Source of the DNA: an uncultured Desulfosarcina sp.
GTDB taxonomy: Bacteria; Desulfobacterota; Desulfobacteria; Desulfobacterales; Desulfosarcinaceae
Reading direction: 5' to 3'
Length of the DNA: 64,000 bases
Assembly: GCA_963674945.2 (NCBI GenBank)
Contig: CAXXWQ010000003.1
Span: 832,001-896,000 of the forward strand
Both the position numbers and the translations under genes were made by a program. Below are positions 12,299-61,681 of this stretch, piece by piece. The stretch's first letter is position 1. Every line of letters starts with the position of its first letter. The notes under the pieces were generated by a model, which was given only the letters and a program-made list of their open reading frames with translations, had not been told where the DNA came from and ran no database searches.

Positions 12299-12595
12299 TT
12301 AATAATTGGAACTGATCCTGACAGTAGCAGTTTCCCCGGTGTTGCACACCAATGCTATTTTTTTGCACTGAACCTTCATTTTGACAAGACCATCGGCAAC
12401 CTTCAGTTTGAAATCATCCGTAGTCGCCCCGTCTTTATCAAACGCGAGAAAAACATCATTCGCCCCGTCATTCCGCAAATAAAGTGTCTTGGAGGCGGGA
12501 TTCAGCTCTTGAATTTGGGATACCTGGGTCGCACTTACGACATGGCTGTCAACATCAGAACGATAAAGCTGATCGGTTAAAGAATAGTGCCTCAT
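12299..12595 (-). CDS. Small hypothetical virion-associated protein (last gene of tail operon)
   Basis: ATGA overlap with upstream stop; 98 aa (MRHYSLTDQ...). Confidence 0.55.
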   Translation of the reverse strand: MRHYSLTDQLYRSDVDSHVVSATQVSQIQELNPASKTLYLRNDGANDVFLAFDKDGATTDDFKLKVADGLVKMKVQCKKIALVCNTGETATVRISSNY

Positions 12596-13269
12596 TTTGC
12601 CATCCCTCCCTTTTTTGTCATTATGCTTCTCAATGTAATTTCCGGCGCTGAATCGACATGCCTTACCGTGTCCCACTCGAATGCACTGATTTCATCCATT
12701 GTCGTCATGGATTCAATGCTGCCTTTGATCGAATAATAATCATCCAGCACTGATTGGATCCATTCCAGGACATTTACAGCATCGGCCTTGATATCCGCCG
12801 AACTGTTTGGAGTCATCAACAGAAATTGTAATGAAGCCTGAGTGTAAAGATCGTATCGTTCTGTGATAAGCTGGATAAGGGCTGCTTTCAATCTCTCTGT
12901 TTTCTCGGTTTTTAAAGCATCGATATCGTCAATCCATTCCTCTTTCGTTTCATCCCACTTACTGGTTTTTCCGGGCCTGCTCTCTGTCAAATTTCCATCT
13001 GGAGCAACCCCCAATTCCGCAATTTTCACTTCCTCTTTCGTATCGATGCGAAAAAAAGTTTCCCCTCTGTAATCCGGGACAACCGACCATTTTCCATTTT
13101 GAAAAACTGCTTTTTCATTCTCACCAGTGGCAGGAGGTTCTTCAAAAGTGGCACAGGCCGGCAAAAGAAAAACATTTTCCTTTCTTAACGCCGTTTCCAT
13201 CGGATCCAACCTCGCTTCGCTGCACGAGGTAAATTCATTGGTCTTTCGATCATAATTAAAAATTTTCAT
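12592..13269 (-). CDS. Tail-fibre assembly chaperone (Tfa-like)
   Basis: LPACATFEEPP..AVF..GKW..VPDYRGE pattern; directly follows fibre gene. Confidence 0.7.
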   Translation of the reverse strand: MKIFNYDRKTNEFTSCSEARLDPMETALRKENVFLLPACATFEEPPATGENEKAVFQNGKWSVVPDYRGETFFRIDTKEEVKIAELGVAPDGNLTESRPGKTSKWDETKEEWIDDIDALKTEKTERLKAALIQLITERYDLYTQASLQFLLMTPNSSADIKADAVNVLEWIQSVLDDYYSIKGSIESMTTMDEISAFEWDTVRHVDSAPEITLRSIMTKKGGMAK

Positions 13270-13283
13270 AATAACTCCACCTC

Positions 13284-14681
13284 TTAAAAATAACAGATCA
13301 AAAACATCACATTGACATTTCGCGGGCGCGCCTCATCCCCGCCAGAAGCACCTGTGCTTACCGAGGATGTATTAGCCCATCCAACGCCAGCGCCGCTTAA
13401 ACCGGCCAAAAGCTCATAATATTCATTCACTGTATGAGAATGTGTTTTATTTTGACTCATTTGTTTTGTTCCGACATTATCACCAGTCGTTCCGTCACCG
13501 CGATCGGTTCGAGAAAGTCTATCCGGATCATGCACGGTGCCGTGAGACCATCCACGAATAAATTCACCACGAAGATCGGGAAGGTTAAAAGTAGTCGAAC
13601 CGTCGCCGATACCGTAAGTCGTTCCAATGGCGGCAAAAAGAGCCGCATATGTCGTTCTGCTGACTGCGGAGCCATCACATTCCAGAAAACCCGCCGGTAC
13701 CGTCGATATCGAGCACACAAATATCATCCCGGTGAATCCGCCATACAATCTGTCTCGAATATCCTGTAGCGGCATCGGGAAAATCGTATTATTGTGCGAT
13801 GCTGATTCTCCAATTTCAACTTGGGCACAGATATAATTTATCGGATTTAAGGGCGGCCCTTCTCCTTCGGCTCGAACGTATCGACACCTGATATCACCAC
13901 TGGTATCGCGCCGGACAATCGCTTCTGCGATATTTTGCCACCTTGCACCATGGGGGCCGACAAGCGTTCCACCGCCGTCTATGTCAGCAACATGATCAAT
14001 CAACGTAGGAGACACTACCCGCTCGTCAACGATCATCGATGAATCTATAATAGAACTCATCAATCGATTCAAAGTTGCGATATGACAGGTGACATGTTGT
14101 ATGTTATTTCCATCGACGTAATCTCCGGGGGTAGTACCATTTTCGGCGACCTTGACTTCCCATCTCAAAGCGATCCGCCGGCTGGTTTCCAGGTTGATCG
14201 TGGTGTCTTTCATGTCGGAATCTTCCGACGAATCCACTTCATCATAGTAGACATCCAGATAAACCTCATCCGTCCGGCTGCCGGCAGGAGTTGTAAGGGT
14301 AGCCGCCCCGGATTGATCCGTATATTCAATTGAACTTGGAATGATCGGCATCCATCCCTTAACGAACATGAAACCGGCACCTGCGGGTGTTCCATCACCG
14401 CCAGTAATCGTGAAATTATTCACGTTACTGGTGCCCGATTCCACAATCTTGAAACCATTGTTCGTCGTACCGTTACCGAAAATTCGCTGGATGAACCGAC
14501 GAAGAAGCTGCAAAAAAATCTCACCTTGTTCATTCAATTCAAAATCGAGCAATGGGATATTAACCAAGGTTCCCGGCTCCCGAAACATTTTGGCGACCAG
14601 CATATACATTTTGGACTCATCAAAATTCCAATTGCTGTATTCACCACCCCAATCGGTTCCAATTTTACCTGTAAATGGCAT
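13284..14681 (-). CDS. Tail fibre protein with tail-collar domain
   Basis: PAGFLECDGSAVSRTTYAALFAAIGTTYG.GDGSTTFNLPDLRGEFIRGW collar motif; HSH and EARPRNV at C-terminus. Confidence 0.88.
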   Translation of the reverse strand: MPFTGKIGTDWGGEYSNWNFDESKMYMLVAKMFREPGTLVNIPLLDFELNEQGEIFLQLLRRFIQRIFGNGTTNNGFKIVESGTSNVNNFTITGGDGTPAGAGFMFVKGWMPIIPSSIEYTDQSGAATLTTPAGSRTDEVYLDVYYDEVDSSEDSDMKDTTINLETSRRIALRWEVKVAENGTTPGDYVDGNNIQHVTCHIATLNRLMSSIIDSSMIVDERVVSPTLIDHVADIDGGGTLVGPHGARWQNIAEAIVRRDTSGDIRCRYVRAEGEGPPLNPINYICAQVEIGESASHNNTIFPMPLQDIRDRLYGGFTGMIFVCSISTVPAGFLECDGSAVSRTTYAALFAAIGTTYGIGDGSTTFNLPDLRGEFIRGWSHGTVHDPDRLSRTDRGDGTTGDNVGTKQMSQNKTHSHTVNEYYELLAGLSGAGVGWANTSSVSTGASGGDEARPRNVNVMFLICYF

Positions 14682-14689
14682 GTGACCTC

Positions 14690-15559
14690 CTATAGATATT
14701 CACTCGAATAGCTTCCACTATCTTTCCAAAAAACCTTGGGCCGATATCCGGCAGCTTTAATCCTGTAAACCAATATTTTAAGTTCTGCTTTTTGCTCAGA
14801 TGTCCAACCGACATAAGTGCCATTTGGAAAGAACAAGCCAAAAGCCGCACGTTCAACACTGATTAGATCACTATCGAAAATCGGATAGCTTGCATTATGA
14901 ACCGGGGTTGACGAATTGTTCATCCACATCATTGTCCCGTAAACCTGATTCAGATCTTTGACTTCAATTTCATACCCGTAGAATCGCTCCAGAATCATTT
15001 CCATAGCGATATTATTGCTTTTGGGCAGCCTTATCTCATTGATAATTCGTTGACCGTAATCGATATCAGTTTCACCAGTCGATCGGGCGATGTTGAAATA
15101 CTCTCCCCAATAATCCAGGGCGAGACCGGTCGCGCTCGGTATGCTCAAATGGCGAAGCATCTCGTAACCGGCCTCCTCCGCCTGTCGCAATTCGTTGGCG
15201 ATAGGATCAAAGAAAGCAAAAAGCGGATTAGTGTAAGCGTATGCCCAATCCTCGCTTGAGTTCTCCACCTCAATAAGCGCCAAAGCCGATACATTCGTCA
15301 TGGCCGCCGGCGAACTTGCAGCATAACCGAAAACCGCATCAATGGCCGTCGCCACCTCGCCGATCGTCCTTCCTTCGAGGGTGATTTCAAAATCAGCGGT
15401 ATATTTCCCGAAGATCCTCGCGCTGATCACCCCATCTTTGACGGTGAATGTCATCCCGGCAGCCGGATCGCTGTAACTCAGCGCCAAAGCGTACTTGACC
15501 ATCGGATCCACATTGAAATAAGTCGGGAGAAAATCCAGAAGACGTTTTAGAACACTCAT
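14690..15559 (-). CDS. Baseplate wedge protein (P2 gpI-like)
   Basis: SATGLALDYWGEYFNIAR..GETDIDY..RII motif; follows baseplate J. Confidence 0.7.
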   Translation of the reverse strand: MSVLKRLLDFLPTYFNVDPMVKYALALSYSDPAAGMTFTVKDGVISARIFGKYTADFEITLEGRTIGEVATAIDAVFGYAASSPAAMTNVSALALIEVENSSEDWAYAYTNPLFAFFDPIANELRQAEEAGYEMLRHLSIPSATGLALDYWGEYFNIARSTGETDIDYGQRIINEIRLPKSNNIAMEMILERFYGYEIEVKDLNQVYGTMMWMNNSSTPVHNASYPIFDSDLISVERAAFGLFFPNGTYVGWTSEQKAELKILVYRIKAAGYRPKVFWKDSGSYSSEYL

Positions 15560-15566
15560 TTTTCAC

Positions 15567-16691
15567 CTATTCATATGAAAGAGATACGGTTCCTTTGGCG
15601 CAGATGTAATTCCAATCACTTGGGACGACATTCACCGCCGGAGCGGTCAGCTCGACATCGAGAACGCCCTCCATCTCCATGATCTCGTTGAGAAGCCTCG
15701 CCCAGACAAGAGTCTGTCCGATTTCAAGGCTCTGGAAATAGGTATCGATGGCGGTTTCGATATTCGAATCGACCATCGCTTCGGTGTAATCAGTCTTCAA
15801 CGTGATCGTTGCGGTCACATCCACCGTATCGATACTGACTGCATAGACCTTCAACACACAGCCCGCCGCTTTCTGGCCAGGCACCTTGACTCCATCTTCA
15901 TTCATATATCCGTGAAGAACCGTGCTGACTTCGGTGAGCAGATCCCCGCTGGCCCCGTTCACTCCATTCCAGAGATAGACATGAACTTCACCTACCGGGC
16001 CGGCCGGGTCTTCGTCCATACTCGGTTCGTGTACCAAGCTTTTCGATACTCTTTCGGTGATGGTTCCTGAATCGGTCAAATAGACCTGTGAGACCGCATA
16101 TTCGATAGAACCTTTGGTGGCTCGGGCCAATGTATTGAGCCATTTTTGAAAACGAACCTTGCGCTCGTTGGCCGTTTCTTCCTCCGTACCGTTGATGAAA
16201 GCGGAAGCGTTCGTAACCGATGCAATGCCACCAATGGCATCCACGATCACGGTGATCGTATTCACCAAACAATTTGAATCGGTCCCACTGATCGTCGCCG
16301 TGACCACGACATCGACGGTATTATCCCCATCTTCAAGAACAGTGTCGCTGTTCACAGTGTAGTAAAAAGACGAATTCAATACCTGTAGTCGTGTTCCCGC
16401 CGGAATAGTGATCTCTCCTGATCCCCCAGCCGTTCGGGTGAAAGTCACCAAGCCGGAAGCCGGGGTCGCCGCAAGCTTGTCGAAGCTGAACGATTTGTAA
16501 ATGGCAACCGGGACAGCCTCGTAAAGCCCCTTCAACAAAGATTGGTAATACTCATCGATCTCAACTGCCGCCGCTTCAAGAATGGTCCTGGTGACGCTCC
16601 CTTTGTTGAAATCCGTCAGTTTATTCGTTGTCGCCGTAATCCGGTTGATCATGGATGCAACGATCGAATCCGTATTTTTGATCTGAAACAT
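15567..16691 (-). CDS. Baseplate J-like protein
   Basis: TDFNKGSVTRTILEA, ASGLVTF, IPAGT, VTNASAFINGTEEET..RK.RF. Confidence 0.9.
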   Translation of the reverse strand: MFQIKNTDSIVASMINRITATTNKLTDFNKGSVTRTILEAAAVEIDEYYQSLLKGLYEAVPVAIYKSFSFDKLAATPASGLVTFTRTAGGSGEITIPAGTRLQVLNSSFYYTVNSDTVLEDGDNTVDVVVTATISGTDSNCLVNTITVIVDAIGGIASVTNASAFINGTEEETANERKVRFQKWLNTLARATKGSIEYAVSQVYLTDSGTITERVSKSLVHEPSMDEDPAGPVGEVHVYLWNGVNGASGDLLTEVSTVLHGYMNEDGVKVPGQKAAGCVLKVYAVSIDTVDVTATITLKTDYTEAMVDSNIETAIDTYFQSLEIGQTLVWARLLNEIMEMEGVLDVELTAPAVNVVPSDWNYICAKGTVSLSYE

Positions 16692-16693
16692 GA

Positions 16694-19123
16694 TTATTTC
16701 CCTCCGATCACGAAGTTTAAATCCGTCGGCGTGTTGGTCTCGATGGAATCAACCTGAATCGAGAACTTGATAGCGTCGCCAACCGCAAAAGAAGTCAATT
16801 CCCGGATATAGTCGAGTCGCGGCTCAAAGTTGATCGCTTCGATGATCGACGCCCTGGCAAGAGTATTGATCGCCGCCGTGTTTTTCTCTCCGATAATCGA
16901 CAGCAACCCGCACCCATATCGGGGATGAGTTGATAGGCTTTTGTAATCACTCTTGACCCGGTGCGTGATCGCTTGCTTCAGATTATCCAATCCGGAGACC
17001 ATCTCGATACCTCCGTTTTGGATGGACAGTGTACCGTCTTCTTTGAGCTTCACGTCCTGGCCGTAGACCTCACTTGCCGTTTGGATGATATTGCCCTTGT
17101 CTCCGGAAACCACCGGAATTTTCAAATGAGTTCCCGGAACCAAATGGGTCTGGCTTGTCTCTGTATTGAAAATCAGAATTTCAGCCCCGTTTGGAAACGC
17201 GATGCAAGGCTCAGTGGTCGTCACCTCTTTGGTCAGATAATCGACGTATTTCACGGTGTAGACCCGGGACTCGGTATCTTTGACGAGAAGAAGGTTGTAC
17301 CCCGGATAGATATTGCTGGCATCGACCACCGTTATCACTTCATCATCCGCGACCACTTCTACCGCCAAATTCGTTTCACCATCCAGTATCCCGTATTCAG
17401 TCAAATCCAGTTGCCGGGTTACGGTGATCGGCGCCGTGAAATTCTGGCTGAAGGTATCATGAAAGGTGATCGTATTTGTCACGATGGATTCGACCTTGAG
17501 GGCCTGCTTTTTCCCGAGAGAATCTTTGAGCAAGAGGGTATCGTTTTCCTTCGCGTAACTTCTCGGGACTGACAAAGCCAATTCGATAACCCGACTCCCT
17601 CCATACAGGTTCGAATTCACGATAAACGAAGTATATGGAAAAGAAGCCTCTTTCGCGTTTTCGATAAGGACATCATTGGCAGCGGCGATTTCATACCATC
17701 GAGAGATATCCCCGTATTCCCGGAAAGCGATACTCTGCAATGTTTCTCCGGGTTTCACGGTAACCGACTTGAATTGACTGATTTTTTTGAGATCTTCATC
17801 GGTGTCCGCTTCAACCATCAATTCAGGTTGAATCTCGATGGTTCCCATCGTATCGAGAATCGCATCGTAGCCCGCATCCACCCCGGAAATGGAACTGGTA
17901 TCCTGGGCGATCCCCGCCAGGTCCTGGAGCTTCTTCCCCAACGTGCTATCGATGACGATTGGTGTATTCGGCTGCTCAAAGGCGCTTTGCAGATTCGATT
18001 CTGTGTAAACGATCCCGATCACATCCCCCGAACCGTTCGCCTTGGATGCCTCGTTCAAAGCGACAATCCACTCTATGGCGTTCGCCGGACTATCGGCGAC
18101 AGTGCCAGATTGTATCCCGTGGGTAGCCGCACAATTCGTGATTCCGCAAACGCCGGAGAAATCCGGCAGCCATGATTCGGTTATTCCTTCTTTCAAGTAG
18201 CAGCCAAACTCTCCCACAACCGATGTCAATTCGTTCAGTTCGATGATCGCATCGAGGGGGAGCGCATTGATAAATGATTGAGTATCCCGGATAGCATCCA
18301 ACGTCAGTTTCACCGTATCCGTGACGCCACCCAAGAAATCGGCGATCTCCCCTACCCCGGATTTTGCATTTTCCAGAATAGACACGCCGCTGCCGATAAA
18401 TGCTGCCATGGTTTGACAGATCGGAGCTGTAAACGATTCGAGTTTAGCCACCATAGGCCCGACACGTTTTTTTAACCCGGACAACCAGTTTTGAGACTTG
18501 GGCACCGGGTCCAAGTCGACCACGGCTTCCTTGTTGATACCGTTCAGATCCGCCACGACGACGAAAGTGAGATCGTATTGGTACAGCAAAGGTTTCACCC
18601 GGCTCCGCAGCAACCGGAAATTCTGAGGAACCACTTGATAAGTCAGGCTATCAACGGAATTGACCACAACCAACTTAACATCATCCGGGTTATGACCATC
18701 TGCCTGTTTCTTCTGACGTTCGGCAAAATAGCGATCGATAAAATCCCGATGCAGCCGGCGAAACGCCTCATGGCCGTCAATGTTCTGATTTTTTATTCGC
18801 CTTGTGCGCCATCCTGTTATCCCTCGGATGGACAGTGTTGGAAGCCCGATTCCAAACTCATCGATGAAAGGTTCACCAAGGGTTTGGACCACCTGCACCC
18901 TCTCATTCCGGGAGACCGTAAATTCCTCGGGGTTAACCGGAAAGATGAACTCATTTTGGCTGCGGATATTCCCGCTGATCACACCATCCAAATACAGGCG
19001 CAAAATTACATTTTTCCCAAACTGACTATGCTGCGGTCCATTCGGATTCAAATTCGCATCTCGGCCGACTGAATCCAGCACTGCGGAAAGCCTTTTTATT
19101 TTCGTCAAACTGGGCGTTTCCAT
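16694..19123 (-). CDS. Multidomain baseplate protein: tube-initiator-like N-terminus, LysM, C-terminal gp25/gpW-like domain
   Basis: FPVNPEEF..VVQTLG at N-terminus; TVKPGETLQSIAFREYGDISRWYEIAAAN (LysM); GLDNLKQAI..HPRYGC..EPR (gp25-like). Confidence 0.7.
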   Translation of the reverse strand: METPSLTKIKRLSAVLDSVGRDANLNPNGPQHSQFGKNVILRLYLDGVISGNIRSQNEFIFPVNPEEFTVSRNERVQVVQTLGEPFIDEFGIGLPTLSIRGITGWRTRRIKNQNIDGHEAFRRLHRDFIDRYFAERQKKQADGHNPDDVKLVVVNSVDSLTYQVVPQNFRLLRSRVKPLLYQYDLTFVVVADLNGINKEAVVDLDPVPKSQNWLSGLKKRVGPMVAKLESFTAPICQTMAAFIGSGVSILENAKSGVGEIADFLGGVTDTVKLTLDAIRDTQSFINALPLDAIIELNELTSVVGEFGCYLKEGITESWLPDFSGVCGITNCAATHGIQSGTVADSPANAIEWIVALNEASKANGSGDVIGIVYTESNLQSAFEQPNTPIVIDSTLGKKLQDLAGIAQDTSSISGVDAGYDAILDTMGTIEIQPELMVEADTDEDLKKISQFKSVTVKPGETLQSIAFREYGDISRWYEIAAANDVLIENAKEASFPYTSFIVNSNLYGGSRVIELALSVPRSYAKENDTLLLKDSLGKKQALKVESIVTNTITFHDTFSQNFTAPITVTRQLDLTEYGILDGETNLAVEVVADDEVITVVDASNIYPGYNLLLVKDTESRVYTVKYVDYLTKEVTTTEPCIAFPNGAEILIFNTETSQTHLVPGTHLKIPVVSGDKGNIIQTASEVYGQDVKLKEDGTLSIQNGGIEMVSGLDNLKQAITHRVKSDYKSLSTHPRYGCGLLSIIGEKNTAAINTLARASIIEAINFEPRLDYIRELTSFAVGDAIKFSIQVDSIETNTPTDLNFVIGGK

Positions 19124-19133
19124 ATTTTCCTCA

Positions 19134-20294
19134 TCACGATGCTACTGTGTTTGTGGTAGCTACCATGCCGATCGCCGGCGGTGAAGCCAGGTTGGCAGTT
19201 TGATCCGGCTTGCTGGTAGGATTCCCATCCCCCTGTTCGGTATGAGTATGATTGTTAAGCCAAGTGTTCAGCGCCGTGATCAGGTCCACCAAATAGGTAT
19301 GGGTGCGTGAATCCAAAAGCGGCAAAGGCGTACCGCTTCCCAAGGAAACCGCAGGACTCACAACCGAAAAAGCCGGAGCGGTGACAGTTTTATTCCCCGT
19401 GAGCACTTCAGTTTGAGTTCCAACACCGGTTATGGTGATATTTCCACTCGCATCAATCGTAATGCTCGTTCCGGATGAATGACACAGATGAATCTGGACC
19501 GGCGAACTGGAGGCCGCCTCGGGTGGATCCGTCTCGCTATCCACTGACCCAATGGATACCGATTCAGCGGTCAATTCACCCGTATCGGGAGCGATCGAAA
19601 ACCAGGACCCTGTGTGATGGCAAATCTTGACTTCTCCATCATGTCCGATCCACACCCGGGTACCACTGGCATGCTGAAAGTAGAACCCTTTCCTGTCCTC
19701 TTTTTTCACGATGAAAGGCTGAGTATCTTTATCCCGATTTAACTGAGACAAATTAGTCAGAGACCGGCTCCCACCCGCCTTTACCACCTTCATATAACTG
19801 TTGTCGGGGTATCTGACTTCTTCCTCGCCCGAAACATCCTTTCCGCCGTTGGCTTTCACCGTGTCGCCGGTGATCCTGTGATATCGATCGGATTCATGTC
19901 GATCGATATGATGGTTGGCTCCAACCTCATTCGAAAAGGAGAGCTGGTTTTCCTCTGGATACCGGAACCCCAACACAATCGGCATGGTTCCGATCCCGGA
20001 AACAAATCCCACGATGGCAAAGATATCCCGGCCGCCGTATGCGATCGGTGCATCATATTCTTGTTCTTGATTCGTCTTCGGATTTTCCGGATCGGGTAAG
20101 TGGCTGATACCCGATGAAGTCGATACCATGGGGGCAAGCACCGGTACCGCCAGATGGACAGCCCCACCATTGATCATCGAAATATCCACCGTCTTTGCCG
20201 CCGCATCAACCCTGATCACCTTTCCCAACTGCAAGGTGTTCTGCCAATATTTAGGAGCCCGCTTTGGATTCCGTTCAAAACCCTTTTGCATCAT
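19134..20294 (-). CDS. Baseplate spike (gpV/gp5-like)
   Basis: OB-fold-like N-terminus (GKVIRVD...TVDI), HxSGT beta-helix repeats, terminal HTH metal-binding tip. Confidence 0.75.
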   Translation of the reverse strand: MMQKGFERNPKRAPKYWQNTLQLGKVIRVDAAAKTVDISMINGGAVHLAVPVLAPMVSTSSGISHLPDPENPKTNQEQEYDAPIAYGGRDIFAIVGFVSGIGTMPIVLGFRYPEENQLSFSNEVGANHHIDRHESDRYHRITGDTVKANGGKDVSGEEEVRYPDNSYMKVVKAGGSRSLTNLSQLNRDKDTQPFIVKKEDRKGFYFQHASGTRVWIGHDGEVKICHHTGSWFSIAPDTGELTAESVSIGSVDSETDPPEAASSSPVQIHLCHSSGTSITIDASGNITITGVGTQTEVLTGNKTVTAPAFSVVSPAVSLGSGTPLPLLDSRTHTYLVDLITALNTWLNNHTHTEQGDGNPTSKPDQTANLASPPAIGMVATTNTVAS

Positions 20295-21676
20295 TTCAGC
20301 GCCTGCCTCATAGCTTGGTCGGTATTATTGGCCATATCCCGGGTCTTCAAATAGCCGTCGCCCCGTTGCACTTCGACCGTCGTAAGAAAATGTTCCTGAT
20401 TATTCGTGAACGTCAACTCATGGCGAACGCCGACAATATAATATTCCGGGGTAACATTCGTTTGACGGTTGAAAATCATGTACCGCCCGGGCCTCAACTC
20501 CGCATTCCCTTTCAAAGTGAAGCTGCCGGATTCATAAGCGCTGTTGTATTTGAACGCCTCGTATAGCGCCAAGTTAAACTTTTCGGCAAGCTCCTGAGAA
20601 TTCACCATGTTCTTGATATCAAAATATTCACTGGTGTTTTCGAAGCGACGAAATCCAAACCGGTACGCCCCCGCATCCCTATCGGTGTATGGAATCATGT
20701 ACGGGTTTTTATTCAGATCTTCCTCGGTTTCCACATTCGGGAGAATACTTGCCTTGAACGGCGTTTTTGCTAAAATGGCATTCTGGACCGGGTAGGTGAA
20801 GAAATAGTTTTTTGTTTCGACATCGCTTCTTTGGAGATTGAAACTGACGATGCTCCCCGGAGGTATTTTGACCGATTCGCCGAGAGTCTTTTTATCGACT
20901 TCCGGATCAACGGCCTGAATATAATTACCATCCTTGTAATCTTTCCAGGGTGTTTCCCGAAAAACCAAATAGAAGCCATCCTCCAGATCGACGGTGAACA
21001 ATTCATTCCATGGGCTGTTGTCGAAGAACGACATCATATCCCATATCGAGCCGTCTTCCTGGGACAACGCGAATTGGTTCACTTCTCCAAGGATAGACGA
21101 ACTGGCCAGATATTTTATCTCCGGCAAGGCCGTCTGGGTCCGTCGGATTAACGAAAGCTGGTTCTTTGCCACATCGAACAGGGTTTTGATGATAGCTACA
21201 GGCTTGTCATCAACATTGTATCCGTATTTTTGCTCGAACTTCTTGAATCCAGGCAGATAGATCAATTGCAGATCTTTGGTGACTTCCTTGAGGTAATAGA
21301 TCCTGGTGATATCGAAAATCTTCCCCAGGTCGCTGCCCTGAATTGTATAAATTCGAATTGGTTTACCGTCATAATCCACCGAAGAAGTCATACCGACAGT
21401 TTCGACGAAGCCGCGCAAGACGATTGGAATTTTAGTGAGACGCCAATCACGGGTGAAACGGATCTCGATATAATCCATCGGGCTCGTGCGATAATACCAA
21501 GACGCCTTGTTCTTATCGAGACCCGGTAAAAGTTGAATCTCGAATTGTCCGGCATGCTGATAAAGACCTTTGGTGATCGTCAACCCTCGAACATGAGGTG
21601 TGAGATCGACCGCCTTTCCTTCCATGTAGGATTGTAGCGTTACCTTGCAACGAATTTTATCGACTTGGATCATCAT
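20291..21676 (-). CDS. Baseplate hub protein (gp27/gpD-like)
   Basis: Position between tape measure and spike; GSFTLKGNAELRPG..YYIVGVRH C-terminal pattern. Confidence 0.7.
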   Translation of the reverse strand: MMIQVDKIRCKVTLQSYMEGKAVDLTPHVRGLTITKGLYQHAGQFEIQLLPGLDKNKASWYYRTSPMDYIEIRFTRDWRLTKIPIVLRGFVETVGMTSSVDYDGKPIRIYTIQGSDLGKIFDITRIYYLKEVTKDLQLIYLPGFKKFEQKYGYNVDDKPVAIIKTLFDVAKNQLSLIRRTQTALPEIKYLASSSILGEVNQFALSQEDGSIWDMMSFFDNSPWNELFTVDLEDGFYLVFRETPWKDYKDGNYIQAVDPEVDKKTLGESVKIPPGSIVSFNLQRSDVETKNYFFTYPVQNAILAKTPFKASILPNVETEEDLNKNPYMIPYTDRDAGAYRFGFRRFENTSEYFDIKNMVNSQELAEKFNLALYEAFKYNSAYESGSFTLKGNAELRPGRYMIFNRQTNVTPEYYIVGVRHELTFTNNQEHFLTTVEVQRGDGYLKTRDMANNTDQAMRQALK

Positions 21677-25251: not shown

Positions 25252-25278
25252 GAACATCCACCTGGAAGTAAAATAAGT

Positions 25279-32776: not shown

Positions 32777-32801
32777 GATTGTTTTCTCCTATTGATTGAT
32801 C

Positions 32802-38505: not shown

Positions 38506-38521
38506 GATTACCTCCTTGTAA

Positions 38522-44246: not shown

Positions 44247-44258
44247 GTAATTAATTAC
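44247..44258 (-). promoter_or_regulatory. GTAATTAATTAC palindrome, copy 6
   Basis: Exact copy, extended to 16-bp palindrome AAGTAATTAATTACTT; upstream of GGAGG RBS of the CDS starting at 44226. Confidence 0.75.
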
Positions 44259-53304: not shown

Positions 53305-53318
53305 AATCTGCCTTTCGG

Positions 53319-53672: not shown

Positions 53673-53687
53673 GCCACACCTCTCAAT

Positions 53688-53699
53688 GTAATTTATTAC
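53688..53699 (-). promoter_or_regulatory. GTAATTAATTAC palindrome, copy 9 (one mismatch)
   Basis: GTAATTTATTAC, upstream of start at 53672. Confidence 0.6.
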
Positions 53700-53731
53700 A
53701 TTGTCATCAACACAATTTTTTTTGATTGAGA

Positions 53732-54526
53732 TTATGTCAAAGTGATTGTCAACGCTTCCGCTTGAAAGCGAACTACATCTCCGGAACCCGCCGTTTCGTC
53801 AGCGATATTGTAATACATGATCATGTTCCCGGCCGTCAGCGCATCACAGATCGCCATATAGGCAAGCGTCCAGTCACCGGTTGGTGACGCAAACAGTATG
53901 ATATCGGCATTATTAACCACCCCGGCCGAGGCCAAATTCCATACCGGACTTGAACCGCCATTCGGATTGACCTGCACCCGGGCATAGTCATTGCTCGGCT
54001 CCCCGGCAATCTCTGTCGTTTCATCCGTCAGGGCGACCGAGCACAATGCGACGTATGTATCCGGCTTTCCGGTGCCGGTTGTAATATTCCTGAAAAACCG
54101 GCTAAGCAGATGATGAGCCCAGGTATTTGAAATGGCGCCAGCGGAGAATTGAATGATAATCTCCCCTGCAATGACCAACGGTACTCGACCGACTGCACAA
54201 TCTTTACCCGTAATGAAATCTCCCGTAGCCAGGCAATTACCGCCAGTCAGTGCATCAAAGATTGCCCAGTTGGTCATTGTACCCCACCCAGTCGTTGCCA
54301 CTGGACCGAATTGGACATCAGCGGCCTGAACAACCTGGCGGGAAGCAGCCGCATTGAATGTGATCGGCCGCCGGGCATAACCGTTACCGGAAGGTTCCCC
54401 CGATAATCCAGTGTCATCCACACTGGTTCCAAGGGCCAGATAGACCGTTGCCACTGGTGTTTTTTCCTCATTGCAAATATGATCCAGAAATAAATTTTCT
54501 GCATAATCAGAGATCGATCCAGGCAT
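53732..54526 (-). CDS. Virion fibre-associated protein with internal two-domain duplication
   Basis: ISDYAEN..YLAL..GEPSGNGYAR..AIFDALTGGN repeated as ISNTWAH..YVAL..GEPSNDYAR..AICDALTAGN. Confidence 0.6.
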   Translation of the reverse strand: MPGSISDYAENLFLDHICNEEKTPVATVYLALGTSVDDTGLSGEPSGNGYARRPITFNAAASRQVVQAADVQFGPVATTGWGTMTNWAIFDALTGGNCLATGDFITGKDCAVGRVPLVIAGEIIIQFSAGAISNTWAHHLLSRFFRNITTGTGKPDTYVALCSVALTDETTEIAGEPSNDYARVQVNPNGGSSPVWNLASAGVVNNADIILFASPTGDWTLAYMAICDALTAGNMIMYYNIADETAGSGDVVRFQAEALTITLT

Positions 54527-54537
54527 TTTGCCACCTC

Positions 54538-56814
54538 CTAAATGTTACTTTGAACAACTCGTTTTGGCGTTACGGAAACGATCTTCAATTCCGGCGTCAC
54601 AGAAACGATCGCATATTCTTTTGTGACGCATTGAATCTTCGAATCGATAACATCCCCCAAAATCGTTAAGAGGAATAACGAATTATCAGTTGAAGTTTGA
54701 ATTACCGGAGATGCCTGAAGATTCCTTTCAACCATCAGAAAAACTTCAGGCGTCAACGTCCTCGGCGCCGGGTTAGCGACAATGTTTCGAATGATATTCA
54801 TCTCAGCCGACGGAGTATATGTCACAGGTTGAATATTGGCTAAGAGATCCCACAGAAATTTTAATTGAGCATCCAGCGTCCTGGTATTGATCGAAACATT
54901 CGATTCCAGGTTAATGGGAAACAAAAGCCTGGCATCCGGCGTTATTGTCTGAATCTGAATTGACCCACCCAAGTCATATGGAATAGAAAGATTACTATTT
55001 GGCGTAACCGTACCGATTTGAATCGGAGACGATAAATTCCAAAGAAACCGCAACGAAGAATCTGGAATAACCGTAACGAGATTGGGGGTGGCAATCAAAT
55101 CATAAGTAGTGCTACTACCTGGATCAGTCGCACTGTATGTAAGAAGAGAATCATTCAACACATGGAACATTGCCCGAATCCACGCGGGCGAACGAATAGA
55201 TTTCGACACACGCACAAGGCCAATTTTACCGTCAAAATTTGAGCCATTTGTAGATGCTCTCAAACGACCAATTGATATATCAGCAATTGAAGATGGCGAT
55301 TCGTCACCAATCCCACTTATCCAAGATCCAGAAACATAAGTACCATTTTTATAGATTTTGGTTGACGCTTCATCACCAAAATTATGACAAACAACAAAGT
55401 ATGAATATACACCAGTTTCAAGTAGATCAGAACCGGATTCAAAATTGCCAGCTTCTCCCGAATCATCCCGGTTATCGTATCCAAACCAAAATCTTTCGTT
55501 CCCATTCCATGGTTCGGAATCATATCCGGCACGTAAAATAAAACGGGCCTGATTAGTTTCATTCCGTTTTGAAATAAATGTATCGCTATCAGAAATGGTA
55601 TCTAACGATAAAAATAATTCTATCGTCAAATTTTCAGAATTAAAATCTGTATGGTGTGGAATTATAACAGCGTCATCATTTCCATCAAGATTGAGCGCCT
55701 TTCCAAAGCCGCCGGCAACCAAATCCTCACTTGTCATCGACCCAGTTGGCGTGCCGTGGTTTTCGTGGCTGGTCGAATCGAGAATACAATCGGTGCCGCC
55801 GCTGGGATCTTGTGCCATATTGTAAACTGCAACAAAGCTTTCATCATATACGCTTTGTGCCTCCACATCCCCGGTTAATCCGACATAACCAGCTCCAATA
55901 TAAGAGATGCCATCACAAGAATTAATTTGAAAATCATCGGCATAGACTTGCAATTTTGTATAAGGATCTTGCCACAGTAATTTTATGATAACGTCTTCAT
56001 TATTGCTATACGCAAGAGTAAGTCCATTGATATCTCCATTCCATTCCCAGCGGCCAACAGAGTCATAATAATAGCATTTCAGCACCCCACTTGTCCGAAC
56101 CATACGAATATGAGAATCATCTACCCCCCGTTTGCATGATGTACCTTCTTCATCGATTCCCCCCGCACTATAACGAGCGTCTTTGTAATAAGGAGCAATA
56201 TGCCCGATAGTAGCATCGTCGGAAGCTTGACTCACAAACATACGAGGGAAAAGATGTACTGAGGAAGAAGGAGACGAATACTGGAAAACATCAAAAAACA
56301 ATTGAACATCGAAATCACCAGATAAAATAAATTTCCCAGTCAGACGGACTTGACATAAATAATCGGTATTCAAACACCAAAAAGCAAGTTGGTTATCAGA
56401 AATAAAAAGATAATCCTCGCCGGATAAAACCTCTTTTTCCCATAGATCCGGATTCGGATCATCCCCATCAGTCCCAGAAAAATCATCGTAAATAGTAGGA
56501 GATGTAATTTCTACAGGATCGGAATAACCTATATCATTTCGTGTTTCAGTGATTTCTATCTTGATAACCGTATTAATCGATGCCAGAACAGTTGAAACTT
56601 TAACCCATAAAACAGCCTTTTCGTTTGCGATATCCCAGGTGACGACTTCGACATAACATTCAACATCATTGACCGTGGCATGCAAATATCGCCAATCATC
56701 AGTACCCAATCCAGACATAAAACCGGTTACCGCACTGATTTTGATACCAACCGCAAAATTTGATTGATCCTCATCGATCTTGTTGTGATCGATAGTGTAA
56801 TAGGCAACGGCCAT
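54538..56814 (-). CDS. Fibre/adhesin-like protein with LamG (ConA-like) domain and C-terminal 21-aa repeats
   Basis: DST...NHGT, GKALNLDGNDD, LTIE, IYKNG, ISIGR..FDGKIGLVRVS..IRS..WI LamG pattern. Confidence 0.7.
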   Translation of the reverse strand: MAVAYYTIDHNKIDEDQSNFAVGIKISAVTGFMSGLGTDDWRYLHATVNDVECYVEVVTWDIANEKAVLWVKVSTVLASINTVIKIEITETRNDIGYSDPVEITSPTIYDDFSGTDGDDPNPDLWEKEVLSGEDYLFISDNQLAFWCLNTDYLCQVRLTGKFILSGDFDVQLFFDVFQYSSPSSSVHLFPRMFVSQASDDATIGHIAPYYKDARYSAGGIDEEGTSCKRGVDDSHIRMVRTSGVLKCYYYDSVGRWEWNGDINGLTLAYSNNEDVIIKLLWQDPYTKLQVYADDFQINSCDGISYIGAGYVGLTGDVEAQSVYDESFVAVYNMAQDPSGGTDCILDSTSHENHGTPTGSMTSEDLVAGGFGKALNLDGNDDAVIIPHHTDFNSENLTIELFLSLDTISDSDTFISKRNETNQARFILRAGYDSEPWNGNERFWFGYDNRDDSGEAGNFESGSDLLETGVYSYFVVCHNFGDEASTKIYKNGTYVSGSWISGIGDESPSSIADISIGRLRASTNGSNFDGKIGLVRVSKSIRSPAWIRAMFHVLNDSLLTYSATDPGSSTTYDLIATPNLVTVIPDSSLRFLWNLSSPIQIGTVTPNSNLSIPYDLGGSIQIQTITPDARLLFPINLESNVSINTRTLDAQLKFLWDLLANIQPVTYTPSAEMNIIRNIVANPAPRTLTPEVFLMVERNLQASPVIQTSTDNSLFLLTILGDVIDSKIQCVTKEYAIVSVTPELKIVSVTPKRVVQSNI

Positions 56815-56837
56815 TTTTCTTCCTCGACTTCGAAATC

Positions 56838-56878
56838 AAATAAAAAGAACCCCGGAGCCTATTGGTACGGCCCCGGGG
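56838..56878 (-). terminator. Rho-independent terminator
   Basis: Minus strand CCCCGGGGCC-loop-GGCTCCGGGG then TTCTTTTTATTT. Confidence 0.7.
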
Positions 56879-56931
56879 CATTCCCAAGGTAGCGAAAAGG
56901 GACGAACACACAGCCCCGGCGGTGGGAACTA

Positions 56932-57471
56932 TCAAATAAATATCCGGATGAAATCTTGCGGTAAATAACTCAAGACCAAAAATGGCATCAATACCTTCCG
57001 TTGAGCGGCAAAATGTCGGGATATCATGCCGAAATCATAATCCGTCAATTTGACCAATTGAATCTCTGGAATATCAATCAACTTGAAATCCTCAAGAATA
57101 ACGAACAAGGCTTGCACCTCGGGAGGAAGCGCATTGTATTCTTTTGTAATGAAAATGACAAAATCCGCATAAGTGATCCCGCTGATTTGAACATCTTTAA
57201 GGATAATTTCCATTCGATCGATGAACGCCAACGCCTGCGATACCGTATACGTTTTTGAAGCAACACCTGCCAAATTTGCAATTTTCAACACACCGGATAC
57301 TGCCTCGGGCGTGACATTGACTTTCTCTGAAATCTGACAAATCACGGATGTTTGGCCATCCGGAATCTTGGCGCACACGGATTCGTTGCTTGCAAAGTTT
57401 GTGGCACAGGCACACACGAGTAAAAAAACAACCGACATGAAAAGCAAACCAACTCGTTTTGTATTAAACAT
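56932..57471 (-). CDS. Putative lipoprotein
   Basis: GGAGG RBS; MFNTKRVGLLFMSVVFLLVCAC lipobox-like signal. Confidence 0.55.
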   Translation of the reverse strand: MFNTKRVGLLFMSVVFLLVCACATNFASNESVCAKIPDGQTSVICQISEKVNVTPEAVSGVLKIANLAGVASKTYTVSQALAFIDRMEIILKDVQISGITYADFVIFITKEYNALPPEVQALFVILEDFKLIDIPEIQLVKLTDYDFGMISRHFAAQRKVLMPFLVLSYLPQDFIRIFI

Positions 57472-58420
57472 GATCATTCCTCCTGAATTCATTAATATAG
57501 TTTTCGAAATCCCATTTTTTGAAAAACTGAGCTGCCGCCATGGCGCCAGAGTCATACAGACGGTCCCGCGTGGCATTGTCCATCCCGAAATTGACAAAGG
57601 AATTACCCATAGTATCGATATGGATTGTCCGGACTCTCTCAGACGCTTCCATGGCCCGGGCGTCGTGAGCATCAAGCATCGTATTGACAAGAGCCATGCA
57701 CAGATCTATCGGACCACTGATTTTTGAATAATGATCAATTGGAAGCCCCTGACGAAAATCTTCCAACTTGAAACCGAACGTCGGCCACCTGGGAGGAAGA
57801 TTGTCCTTCCTATCGAATAACCAGACGGGATAATTGGAAAGCACACCACCATCGACGATATGACAAGGACCTTGAGAGTGATGCAAACAAACTGTCTCAA
57901 AAAAGACCGGTACCGACATGGACATTCTTACAGCCAATGCGATTTCAAACGCATCTGGATCAATACCGTATTCGGCTATGTCACCGGGAAATATCAGCAT
58001 CTTCCGGCGGGAAATATCCGTTGCGATCATCTGCAAGGGATAACCACCATCTTCACGCTTGATGAGATCCCCGAACGTCCGCGCCCTGCTCGGTGAACGT
58101 TCCAGGTGCCCCCGCATCCAATTAAGAAAGTAATCCCCTTCATAAAAACCATTCTCGAAAAGAATTGACAAAACGGGGCCAAGCACCGGAATCCTGTCGA
58201 TCGCCCCTTTGTCACAGAATTTCTGATAATTGGTATTGGAGACGATATCGGAAATTGTATTGGCATCATATCCGCCGGCGATCAGTGCGGCCACGATCGA
58301 TCCCGCCGATGTTCCTGCCACGCGATTGAACTCGTATCCCATGGCTTCAGTAACCGCGACAGCGCCACACAAACCGACACCGTTTACCCCACCCCCTTCG
58401 AACACAGCATCACATTTCAT
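57464..58420 (-). CDS. Patatin-like phospholipase
   Basis: EGGGVNG, GTSAG (catalytic Ser), VDGG (catalytic Asp). Confidence 0.92.
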   Translation of the reverse strand: MKCDAVFEGGGVNGVGLCGAVAVTEAMGYEFNRVAGTSAGSIVAALIAGGYDANTISDIVSNTNYQKFCDKGAIDRIPVLGPVLSILFENGFYEGDYFLNWMRGHLERSPSRARTFGDLIKREDGGYPLQMIATDISRRKMLIFPGDIAEYGIDPDAFEIALAVRMSMSVPVFFETVCLHHSQGPCHIVDGGVLSNYPVWLFDRKDNLPPRWPTFGFKLEDFRQGLPIDHYSKISGPIDLCMALVNTMLDAHDARAMEASERVRTIHIDTMGNSFVNFGMDNATRDRLYDSGAMAAAQFFKKWDFENYINEFRRNDHV

Positions 58421-58495
58421 CCATTACCCCCGTATTTTACTCATTTCCATCAGAGAAAAACGTATCGATGAAACAATGACCGAAGACTTTTTTAA

Positions 58496-58879
58496 CTACT
58501 CGACGGAACCCCTTATCTTCACGATCGACGGGTTCCCCACTTGGAAAGGGACGGTCCAGTTCCCCCCTGAGAACACGATGCCAAATTCCTCCCCGTCACT
58601 GAATTCCAAATCATAAATGGGCAGCTTGGCCCCGATACTCACGTAATAGATTCCATCCGGTAGGTCTGAAATTGTTGCAATCCGGGCGGTTGCATCGACG
58701 GTTACTGCCGGATCACCCAGTTCGGCGCCATCCGGCCTGGCATAGATGTAGAATTCACTCACCTTACCCTGATCAGCTACCGAAAATTCCCACTCGACAA
58801 TGATTGAATTGGCAGCCATGGCACCGGCAGCCATGACCATTGCGACAATTAAAACGACAAAAAAAATGAGTCTTTTCAT
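58496..58879 (-). CDS. Exported fibronectin-type-III-like protein
   Basis: Signal peptide ending AMA; V.W...F.IY...ATISDL.DG.YY.SI.A. Confidence 0.6.
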   Translation of the reverse strand: MKRLIFFVVLIVAMVMAAGAMAANSIIVEWEFSVADQGKVSEFYIYARPDGAELGDPAVTVDATARIATISDLPDGIYYVSIGAKLPIYDLEFSDGEEFGIVFSGGNWTVPFQVGNPSIVKIRGSVE

Positions 58880-58881
58880 GA

Positions 58882-59268
58882 TTAGTTTTCTCCTTTGATT
58901 CTTTTAATTCCTGGTACTGTGATTGAATATTCTTTATTTAATTCTGACGTTCCGATTAATGTCACTTCCTCTGAATCCGCGCTTTCCAGATCACCCTCGA
59001 AAGCACGAACGACAAAATAATAGGTTGTATCTTCCTCTACTGCCGGCAGAAATATTTCTGCCATGGTGCCGGCTCCGCTCCATGCCGGTTTCTGATAATC
59101 GAACTCTTGACCCTCAACTCGAACGAAAACCCGATATCCATCAGGCGCTGGCTCATTCGCATCCCAAGTTAATCTGACACCGATACCTGTAACTGTGATG
59201 GTTGTGGCGGAAACCATTGCCGGTAAAAGCAAAATGAAAATGAAGACAAAGAAGAAACGCTTCTTCAT
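58882..59268 (-). CDS. Exported fibronectin-type-III-like protein
   Basis: Signal peptide ending VSA; VRLTWDAN...DGYRVF...TYYFVVRAF...ESADSEEV. Confidence 0.75.
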   Translation of the reverse strand: MKKRFFFVFIFILLLPAMVSATTITVTGIGVRLTWDANEPAPDGYRVFVRVEGQEFDYQKPAWSGAGTMAEIFLPAVEEDTTYYFVVRAFEGDLESADSEEVTLIGTSELNKEYSITVPGIKRIKGEN

Positions 59269-59762
59269 TTCACGCCTTTCAGCGCCCGGTTAATCCATCC
59301 AAGCAAATACTTTTTCTGACTTGGTTTCCGGTTACAGATTGAGGCATAGTACTTAACCTTGGCCACAAAAAAAGCATTGAAGAAAAACTTCGGATTTTCG
59401 AACTCAAATTCGGTATTCAACACGCCAAGGGTTTTGACACCCATGATTCCATCCGGATAAGTGCCGGCTGCCTTTTGAGTCATCCGGATCGCCGTATAGA
59501 CACCCATGTTTACCGCCGTATCGAAAATCACCTCGGCGATATCCTGCCGCTCAACATCATCACCTCGAATCGGATCCCAGTAATTAGCTCGATAAATCTC
59601 CTTGGCTCGATCCTCAGTAAGATTCGCAATATCCTCTTTTGGGTGGGCGGCCTTGCTGATTCCGAATTTGGTTTCCCCGCCAGGATCCTCCGGATCATTG
59701 GTATAAGTGCTACCGCCTTCCCTTTCCAAAATTTTACTGACTGCTAATTCAAAATTCGCCAT
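59265..59762 (-). CDS. Glycoside hydrolase family 108 endolysin with PG-binding C-terminus
   Basis: EGG..NDPEDPGGETKFGIS, YW, FDTAVNMG, DGIMG.KT, YLLGWINRA. Confidence 0.9.
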   Translation of the reverse strand: MANFELAVSKILEREGGSTYTNDPEDPGGETKFGISKAAHPKEDIANLTEDRAKEIYRANYWDPIRGDDVERQDIAEVIFDTAVNMGVYTAIRMTQKAAGTYPDGIMGVKTLGVLNTEFEFENPKFFFNAFFVAKVKYYASICNRKPSQKKYLLGWINRALKGVK

Positions 59763-59763
59763 T

Positions 59764-59775: not shown

Positions 59776-59806
59776 TTTTATTTGAAGATAATTTTTTTTG
59801 AACCGA

Positions 59807-61444
59807 TCAACTGGCGAGCATGATTTGGAGATACTTACTCTCAGCACCGACAAGCGCCTTTTCCATTTCCTCGCCATTCAGCTCATCCTCTGCCGAAATC
59901 TCCTGATTTTCCTGTCCTCCACCCCCTTCCTGACCCTGTTCCTGGCTATTCTCTTCTTCTGAACCTTCCTCCGATTCTCCACCTTCACCGCCGCCCCCCA
60001 TCATACCAGCCATGGCTTGCTGGTTTAACCACATGACATATTGAGGATTCAAGATAAGGCCGCCGCCCTTATCTTCCCCAAGCGGTTCGCGCCCAGCTTC
60101 AATCCGTGCCTCATCGACGGTAAGGTATGACCCCACTTCTTTTGTCCGAAGATCGATAACCTCTTTCTCATCTTTGGAGTCGATGCCGACCCAAACGAAT
60201 CGAAACTCATCCGTTAAGGGCTCGATGATGTAATGATTCACCCATCGGCCAACAGACGCAAGAAGAGGCCGAAGGCCTTTATCCTTCGACATCTTGAGCT
60301 TGGCTTCCTGATTGGATTCGAACAACGGTGCAGAACCACCGCTGCCGGCTGACATGAAGAACCCGATTTCTCCGGCGTCAATCGAATAAACAGCGCAAGC
60401 AATTTTTACAAGAAAATCAAGGTATTGTGTAAACTCCATTTCGCGGTTCGTCGAACCCATGTTGACGAATTCCACCCCATCCGTCTGAAGAATCGGCGTC
60501 GACCAGGCGTTTTTAGTTCCAGTAACCATCGCCCGCCACGCCCGCTTAAACGCTTCAAGCTGATCACCCATGACACCTGACTGGGCCTTGCCGGTTTTAA
60601 TATTGATCAATCCCTTCACGGCCGCTCCATTCTGGAAAAACTGACTGTTATGGGTCATGGCGTTGAAGATATTGGTCACGATCGACACGAGCTGCTCAAG
60701 CTCGCTCACCCCGTAACCATTATTCTTGATATTGGTCGTGGGATTCCGGATGCCGTACAAAATCTCATCCGGTTCGTATTCAGTGACTATTTGGCCATTG
60801 AGAACCTGGACGTACTTCTTGTCATCCAACCCTTCGTCATCTTTTTGAGCCAATGCCAAACGGATAGTCGCCGCATCAACAGCATAAAAAGAATGAAGAC
60901 CGCCTTTCCGGGTCGGAAGCAGCTCAGTCACAGCCGCATCGAATGTAAGTGAATCCCTCACCGTCTTTTTCAACCAGGTGTCGAAGTTATCTCTACCGGC
61001 ACGAGTCTGCTTGGGGTCGACATAACCACATCGACGAATGAAATTTTCTAAATCTTTGACATACTGCTCTTCGCTTTTGGACAACTTCTTATTCGGATCT
61101 TTGTGTGCGACACGGAAGCCAAGCTGATCATTGCCAGTGGTTTCCATCTCGCTGACGGGTGCCGAAAAAACTCCGACCTGCCGAATCCTCGTATTAACGA
61201 TCGAACTGATAATAGGATTCTTTTCGGCCATCACCCGAAGAGTATCCCAAGTTAAATTGCTCCGCCGTTCACGCCAGAGACCATATTGACTCGTAAAATC
61301 ATAAGGATTGACAAAAAAGGTTTGTGGAGTATCTCGACGTGCGGGGAGTTTTTCACCACTGACGCTTTCTTTTTTGGCTTTTGCCAATTCCTCCGCCGCG
61401 AACTCGTTCAACAGTTCAAAAAACTCTTGGTTTTCCATTGCCAT
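59807..61444 (-). CDS. Phage portal protein
   Basis: 545 aa; VRDSLTFD, YGVSELE, N..FFQNG..KG.I, MEF..YL..L...CAVY.ID..EI, LTVDEAR...GREPL..GG..ILNP. Confidence 0.9.
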   Translation of the reverse strand: MAMENQEFFELLNEFAAEELAKAKKESVSGEKLPARRDTPQTFFVNPYDFTSQYGLWRERRSNLTWDTLRVMAEKNPIISSIVNTRIRQVGVFSAPVSEMETTGNDQLGFRVAHKDPNKKLSKSEEQYVKDLENFIRRCGYVDPKQTRAGRDNFDTWLKKTVRDSLTFDAAVTELLPTRKGGLHSFYAVDAATIRLALAQKDDEGLDDKKYVQVLNGQIVTEYEPDEILYGIRNPTTNIKNNGYGVSELEQLVSIVTNIFNAMTHNSQFFQNGAAVKGLINIKTGKAQSGVMGDQLEAFKRAWRAMVTGTKNAWSTPILQTDGVEFVNMGSTNREMEFTQYLDFLVKIACAVYSIDAGEIGFFMSAGSGGSAPLFESNQEAKLKMSKDKGLRPLLASVGRWVNHYIIEPLTDEFRFVWVGIDSKDEKEVIDLRTKEVGSYLTVDEARIEAGREPLGEDKGGGLILNPQYVMWLNQQAMAGMMGGGGEGGESEEGSEEENSQEQGQEGGGGQENQEISAEDELNGEEMEKALVGAESKYLQIMLAS

Positions 61445-61668
61445 TAGAAATCCTCTATTGGTTTATTGAAAAGAGTGCGCGCCGCATACGGCAATTCACC
61501 GGTTGACTGTTCATCCAAATCCGCCCGGACGAGGCTCACATCCAAACCAGGAATATGAACATGCTGCCGATGACGACACTTGTTACACTCGACAACAGAA
61601 CCCTCAAGATTTATAGGATTAGTTTCCCCACCACATTCATTACACGCCATCTCTCCATCCGCTTTCAT
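61444..61668 (-). CDS. Small zinc-ribbon protein, first gene of the cluster
   Basis: CNECGG...CNKC; stop overlaps portal start. Confidence 0.55.
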   Translation of the reverse strand: MKADGEMACNECGGETNPINLEGSVVECNKCRHRQHVHIPGLDVSLVRADLDEQSTGELPYAARTLFNKPIEDF

Positions 61669-61669
61669 T

Positions 61670-61681
61670 GTAATTAATTAC
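61670..61681 (-). promoter_or_regulatory. GTAATTAATTAC palindrome, copy 11
   Basis: Exact copy, one base from ATG at 61668; marks right edge of cluster. Confidence 0.75.

Follow-up and report, generated by a model that had tools for sequence, protein, structure and literature searches.

A headed contractile-tail gene cluster of an uncultured Desulfosarcina lies within a 161-kb prophage, likely a temperate myovirus related to SPO1 and SP-10

Introduction

Herelleviruses are generally regarded as virulent, and in the SPO1-like phages among them the capsid is cleaved at a hydrophobic-x-K|A/S site. Here we analyze a 64,000-nucleotide stretch of an uncultured Desulfosarcina sp. (assembly GCA_963674945.2, 7.08 Mb in four contigs) whose head and contractile-tail genes resemble those of such phages. 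This stretch, hereafter the window, runs from C3:832001 (position 1) to C3:896000, where C3 is contig CAXXWQ010000003.1. An earlier note, made from the window alone, had seen a complete virion cluster lacking terminase and replication genes, and offered two explanations: a segment of a dispersed giant prophage or phage-plasmid, or a domesticated headed particle of the gene transfer agent (GTA) or protein-delivering kind. We conclude, with a probability of about 0.93, that the window covers the virion-gene arm of a prophage of 161 kb at a host tRNA-Leu gene, likely a temperate myovirus of a new lineage related to SPO1 and SP-10.

The Herelleviridae profile of the international virus taxonomy committee (ICTV) gives Firmicutes hosts and DNA polymerase I as a core gene, names no lifestyle, and describes genomes of 125-170 kb with linear, terminally redundant, non-permuted virion DNA (PMC7414437). 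In the accessible part of PMC7409376, the words "prophage," "temperate" and "integrase" occur 0 times. A second class that bears on this locus is the MuF/polyvalent proteins: according to the accessible part of PMC5512222, InPase, ADP-ribosyltransferase (ART) and MuF-linked proteins are predicted to be packaged and then injected, T4 Alt being the prototype.

We compared the source genome with G403, an IMG/VR provirus of 119.7 kb; G892, a genome of 5.77 Mb in one contig from a different family of the order; G016, a 170-contig assembly of the same order, whose capsid protein carries the label Desulfobacterales bacterium, the basis for the host order given here; and the fragments G401, G402 and G404. 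Pfam and PHROG scans took in 72 open reading frames (ORFs) of the window.

Results and Discussion

The window is part of an integrated element

The prophage spans C3:802604-963880 (161,277 bp), with the whole window inside it. Repeat comparison revealed a 75-bp direct repeat (96%) at C3:802604-802678 and C3:963806-963880, which duplicates the 3' end of tRNA-Leu(GAG) and marks the attachment (att) sites. An excisionase (HTH_17) and an integrase (PF00589, 65 bits) adjoin the right att site at C3:962168-963571, and the integrase retains an R-K-HxxR-H-Y pattern, which we take to be catalytic. GC content is 46.1% in the prophage compared to 51.1% in the rest of the contig. All modules lie on one contiguous element, and collinear relatives are integrated elsewhere. 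The tRNA 3'-end duplication with an integrase and excisionase beside att is as in tRNA-targeting tyrosine-integrase prophages, from which this lineage differs by its very large size (138-161 kb), its near-complete replisome and its SPO1-type virion.

A phage-plasmid captured into, or misassembled onto, the chromosome would be consistent with the ParA and small partner gene found at one end (C3:805361-806238) here and in G892, and an episomal phase beside integration is conceivable. However, tRNA 3'-end duplications adjoin integrases in two independent genomes, and at the right junction contigs of two public runs cover the phage side and the host side without other letters, although these contigs break at the repeat and may themselves be the data behind the assembly. 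We therefore regard a captured or misassembled plasmid as very unlikely. The large prophage segment proposed earlier thus stands, but it is contiguous and chromosomally integrated rather than dispersed.

Terminase and replication genes lie just beyond the window

None of the 72 window ORFs matched a terminase, helicase, primase or polymerase, as the earlier note had said, but this absence is an effect of the window edge and does not extend to the element. The large terminase (TerL; C3:903300-904907; phrog_675, E 7.5e-123; GpA_ATPase, 41 bits) lies 7.3 kb past the window end, on the portal's strand and 9.9 kb upstream of portal, and a likely small terminase follows at C3:905123-905755. Beyond them come a 7-deazaguanine block (C3:905825-912349) and, on the other strand, a replication arm (C3:913587-959775) encoding a helicase, DnaB, primase, NAD ligase, GyrB, DnaE, SSB, RecA, SbcCD, a sigma factor resembling the extracytoplasmic function (ECF) type, thymidylate synthase and ribonucleotide reductase (RNR). 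A whole-genome search with Pfam Terminase_6N gave no match, a false negative because that is the wrong family for a GpA_ATPase/phrog_675 enzyme; TerL also had no PDB sequence match at E 0.1. No family A polymerase was matched among the ORFs scanned, the polymerase being DnaE, as in G403 and G892.

The expectation that terminase lies near portal fails for this lineage. The two lie 9.9 kb apart here; G892 has 3.6 kb between them, G403 22 kb, SP-10 11.9 kb and Nachito 17.5 kb. The genes in this gap vary: this element has signalling genes, G403 has type III restriction-modification, GmrSD, HNH and ankyrin genes, and G892 has Vsr, a C5 methylase and a SmaI-like nuclease. Since gene content differs case by case, the host-type genes near portal fill a variable phage slot, which starts in the window at 62344..64000 (plus strand; DUF2703, hemerythrin). 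The order described earlier upstream of portal (a 74-aa ORF, a palindrome at 61670-61681, then these host-type genes) was confirmed.

The phage GyrB (C3:931378-935004) contains inteins, one of which holds a copy of the palindrome (933031). GyrB also occurs in G403 and G892; both GyrA/ParC matches of the genome lie outside the element, so phage GyrB may pair with host GyrA. The 7-deazaguanine block is common to G403, while G892 retains only its two parB genes there.

Relatives are collinear, sporadic and integrated at different sites

G403 is collinear from RNR to the tail fibre (TerL 82%, capsid 82%), with a different integrase at the same end. The G892 copy occupies 137.8 kb between 56-bp repeats (94.6%) at tRNA-Thr(CGT) and has its own integrase (PF00589, 99.5 bits); its far end carries the same ParA pair. 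Compared with one another, the three integrases are only 21-23% alike. In the comparison with G403, amino-acid changes were far fewer than silent ones in 13/13 genes (pN 0.09-0.30, pS 0.61-0.77), with silent sites near saturation; this pattern is not proof of ongoing selection on this copy. TerL queries found no match in the 170-contig G016 assembly or in the fragments G401, G402 and G404.

A search with the capsid protein found it in 1/400 other genomes of the order and 1/400 other genomes of the class, and in 0/12 and 0/25 genomes of the same family. Scanning contigs with the capsid yielded one spurious partial match, and a phylum scan with phrog_752 gave, besides the source genome, two weak partial matches (E 3e-4 and 5e-4). 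At identities of at least 57%, 29 capsid clusters, counting this one, group together with a support of 100 in a 121-row set from which matches under 440 aa were removed. In a midpoint-rooted capsid tree of 39 rows (13 from the 29-cluster clade, 14 further metagenomic ones and 12 named phages), the clade falls on the Spounavirinae side of a 100/100 branch and outside the 96/90 Spounavirinae group.

Could the cluster be a domesticated, host-maintained headed particle, GTA-like or protein-delivering? Host-type genes flank portal, and the head block includes enzymes with domains of effector type. On the other hand, terminase, replication arm, integrase and att sites are the element's own, the capsid is found only sporadically in the genomes searched, and relatives sit at different tRNAs with dissimilar integrases. 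As the cognate terminase and replication module that the earlier note named as contrary evidence do lie outside the window, we consider domestication highly improbable. GTAs, extracellular contractile injection systems (eCIS) and tailocins likewise place contractile tail genes among host-type genes, but this element combines head genes, terminase, replication and integration modules with a sporadic distribution. It does not fit the definition of a GTA, having its own replication and integration modules and not being kept across the host clade in the genomes searched, nor that of an eCIS or tailocin, since capsid, portal and terminase are present. The idea of a terminase-less domesticated particle thus falls, and what stands is a Desulfobacterales lineage of integrated phages, 138-161 kb in size, that encode SPO1-type virions.

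An SPO1-type virion probably joined to a temperate cycle

The best isolated matches are to Spounavirinae (capsid 44-49%, TerL 35-39%), with other herelleviruses at 26-31%. SP-10, Nachito and SPO1 share with the prophage the order capsid, neck, sheath, tube, chaperone, tape measure, baseplate, as well as a TerL far from portal, a MuF-like gene near portal and a similar genome size. Unlike these Bacillus phages, the lineage has a Desulfobacterales host, an integrase, an excisionase, att sites and DnaE in place of polymerase I; portal and protease, adjacent in SP-10 and Nachito, are 20 kb apart here; and its capsid lies in the separate 29-cluster clade. Herelleviridae core virion genes are present (capsid, protease, portal, TerL, sheath, tube and baseplate J, with tape measure by position), and sizes of 161.3 kb here and 137.8 kb in G892 fall within the family range. 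Because the host is not a Firmicutes and the polymerase is DnaE rather than polymerase I, we do not place the lineage in Herelleviridae.

These findings suggest a phage that combines an SPO1-type virion with a temperate cycle of tRNA integration, and the lineage appears to be undescribed: searches of the open-access literature, at the level of titles and abstract openings, showed no description of it. An SPO1-type virion can evidently go with modules for integrase and DnaE in hosts that are Gram-negative anaerobes, and 29 metagenomic capsid clusters gain a likely host order and lifestyle.

The virion genes all lie on the minus strand of the window. A conserved 125-aa ORF, a fibre assembly protein and a tail fibre with a collar domain occupy 12299..14681 (fibre genes 12592-14681), followed by the baseplate genes at 14690..21676 (baseplate J, tube initiator/LysM/sheath initiator, hub). 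A 558-aa ORF at 21673-23349 is the likely tape measure by position and conservation, having no Pfam or PHROG match, and the tail assembly chaperones lie within 21673..23966 (chaperone 23616-23966). Next come the tail tube (27016-27435), the sheath (27516-29489), and terminator, neck and adaptor genes, among them one for a 560-aa protein bearing the head-protein N-terminal motif (29698..34192). SPO1/SP-10-type major capsid (36211-37650), scaffold (37708-38535) and prohead protease (38522-39415) follow, and portal (59807-61444) and the conserved 74-aa ORF (61444-61668) close the cluster (59807..61668). The cluster is thus co-oriented, as noted earlier, but not fully intact: an IS66 insertion sequence (IS; 24578..26874, plus strand) and one foreign ORF interrupt it at about 24039-26874, and another IS splits the ART gene. 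The tube-chaperone junction bears insertions in both genomes compared, that of G892 being about 21 kb (C1:4595401-4616348).

The portal-protease block probably encodes head-loaded proteins

The portal-protease interval measures 20.4 kb, close to the 20 kb of enzymatic cargo first proposed, yet much of it consists of lysis, fibre and decoration genes and of a block conserved in relatives. Its portal-proximal part (lysis, fibre/decoration genes, patatin) varies between relatives; here it lies at 52288..59762 (minus strand, like the other genes given below) and encodes a 338-aa protein, fibre/decoration proteins of the gp80 and LamG/DUF2341 kinds, patatin, an fn3 protein and a GH108 endolysin. 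The protease-proximal part is kept in G403, G892 and G016 and comprises an InPase-domain protein (50793..51575), a KOW/ART protein (45335..50738, IS-split at 46029-48284; 978 aa in G403 and 1005 aa in G892), an HD-domain protein with an HVK-type N-terminal motif (44251..45021), a 693-aa protein (42145..44226) with an N-terminal LEKA site, a KOW domain and a predicted sigma region 2 + 4 fold, and a MuF-like minor head protein (40243..41082). The last is 28-31% identical to Nachito and SP-10 genes upstream of portal and matches the Nachito "minor capsid protein" at E 3e-24.

Near their N-termini, the capsid, 693-aa, ART and 560-aa proteins have the pattern hydrophobic-x-K|A/S, and three proteins have the HVK-type motif in common, in the source genome and G403 alike. 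The former pattern occurs in 8/21 head-zone ORFs (6/19 in G403) compared to 2/35 replication ORFs and 93/1127 host ORFs, although it is short and some of the 8/21 matches arise by chance or in a wrong frame, which tells against our interpretation. Judging by position, domains and N-terminal motif, the conserved proteins would be loaded into the head, and it is likely that they are trimmed by the protease at this site and injected with the DNA. Their delivery as ordinary phage head proteins is plausible. As in the MuF/polyvalent head-packaged proteins, as far as PMC5512222 is accessible, InPase and ART domains and a MuF-like gene occur together in a head region; here, by contrast, they are mostly separate genes with a common N-terminal motif, and one has a predicted sigma fold. 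The word "sigma" occurs 0 times in the accessible main text of that paper.

The 693-aa protein has a predicted sigma-like fold

Residues 280-560 of the 693-aa protein were predicted to fold with a mean pLDDT of 80 and a pTM of 0.44. A structure search of 48,161 chains placed sigma-factor or holoenzyme entries, by title, in the top 28 rows, with a best Z, over region 2, of 7.1 (root-mean-square deviation 2.9, 96 residues), a middling value where helical folds are concerned, and weaker values over region 4 (Z 4.8-5.0). An ESM search restricted to named clusters pointed in the sigma direction too (0.94-0.95). On the other hand, Foldseek gave nothing significant (best E 0.64), Pfam found no sigma domain in 15 homologues, KOW matches dominated whole-length fold searches, and there was no detectable profile match to the element's own 240-aa ECF-like sigma. 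Just 13 proteins emerged from a profile search of 1.84 billion representatives, and isolated phages gave no match. We consider it likely that the protein carries a divergent sigma fold.

It is the sole sigma-like gene found in common among this element, G403, G892 and G016, all of which keep the palindrome GTAATTAATTAC, and a GTAATTAATTAC site precedes its gene. The lineage might pack the predicted sigma factor in its capsid and inject it with the DNA to read GTAATTAATTAC as a phage promoter, starting lytic transcription at once; we consider this doubtful. If true, a head-loaded sigma factor would be an unusual start of phage transcription and is directly testable. A phrase search for such a factor in the open-access literature, which leaves most subscription journals outside, returned only papers that are, by title, of the reovirus type.

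GTAATTAATTAC is a likely phage-wide regulatory site

A genome search for more copies of this palindrome, as the earlier note had proposed, found it far beyond chance: exact GTAATTAATTAC occurs 18 times in the 161-kb element and 0 times in the other 6.91 Mb (25 vs 5 with one mismatch). All exact sites fall within C3:823001-961012, which pointed to an element larger than the window. Besides 61670..61681, exact window sites lie at 23984, 27486, 37675, 39598, 44247, 50757, 51577 and 59764, and many sites in both arms stand directly upstream of start codons. G403 has 9 exact copies, G401 has 4 and G016 has 1, with none in the fragments G402 and G404, and 12/13 places in G892 are within its prophage copy.

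We consider it likely that GTAATTAATTAC is a phage-wide regulatory site at operon starts. AATG follows the site on one strand in 11/25 cases and on the other in 1/25, while G892 sites are nearly symmetric, and a strictly polar motif is only partly supported. At window 51577, 59764 and 61670, the ATG of the called ORF begins one base after the palindrome, suggesting leaderless messages; the start codon at 51575 may lie further downstream. Kayvirus late promoters have a single -10 block without a -35 (PMC10383478, accessible part), which fits a promoter, while the symmetry of GTAATTAATTAC fits an operator. An operator has close to an even chance, a promoter for a phage sigma factor is a slightly more tentative possibility, and any other role is improbable. 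The 240-aa ECF-like sigma was rejected as the reader, having no match in the G403 and G892 stretches that keep the motif.

This copy is damaged

We propose that, upon induction, the prophage would excise and replicate by its own DnaE, DnaB and primase, that its terminase would package the DNA, and that head proteins trimmed at hydrophobic-x-K|A/S sites would be injected with it. Several observations speak against so simple a picture. An in-frame stop interrupts the superfamily 2 helicase, IS copies split three genes, and nine IS transposase ORFs total 15.7 kb, from families with 9-28 copies genome-wide. The ART and methyltransferase genes are unsplit in G892. No repressor was securely identified: an Xre HTH protein (C3:935486) is 59% identical in G403 and just E 0.005 in G892. 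No holin could be named, and the G892 copy lacks the CRISPR block, whose belonging to the phage is therefore judged from its place within the att limits, with the phage ParA pair on one side and the early genes on the other.

Given this damage, it is an even bet that the copy is a defective prophage in decay, its lytic cycle lost, persisting as cargo (CRISPR-Cas, HicAB, signalling). That account draws on the helicase stop and the IS load, is compatible with a temperate myovirus lineage and concerns only the state of this copy. Against it, alignment to G403 shows neither stops nor frame changes in portal, protease, capsid, sheath, tube, baseplate, TerL, DnaE and primase, the catalytic pattern of the integrase is retained, and both att sites are present. 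The chance that the copy still makes infectious particles is, in our estimate, somewhat below even. In public runs, contigs had a depth of 20.1 inside the right att compared to about 16.5 outside it, and of 14.5 compared to about 14, and the contig ends listed, which come only from assembled contigs, included no attP-type loose end. No RNA run was listed among the public runs that hold the element.

Other features of the element

The type I-Fv CRISPR-Cas locus inside the att limits (C3:809124-821926) comprises cas6f, cas5fv, cas7fv and cas1 by family match, a 973-aa ORF in the cas2-3 position, and an array of 104 repeats with 103 distinct spacers. No spacer had a full-length match to the relatives compared, G892 not among them. 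The spacer at C3:809572 matches C1:418079 and C3:1996453 at 32/33 bases; both positions belong to copies of a further element of the source genome, presumably Mu-like, with an AAA/TniB ATPase and DUF3164 as neighbours. This match possibly reflects conflict between prophages.

Within the left end, a cation/H+ antiporter-CBS gene (C3:803146-804858) has a 94% copy at C3:1413198-1414878. The window also holds host-type cargo at 2207-6349 (CBM48, Hsp20, PilZ, chemoreceptor), a HicAB pair at 8465-8888, and a short tyrosine recombinase at 8966..9544 (plus strand) that is conserved in G401, G404 and G892. A third, degenerate att-like copy at C3:964949-964996, 1.1 kb beyond the right end, is perhaps the remnant of an older island. 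Outside the prophage, the host has a second CRISPR array at about C3:669.7-671.3 kb, with about 23 copies of a different repeat.

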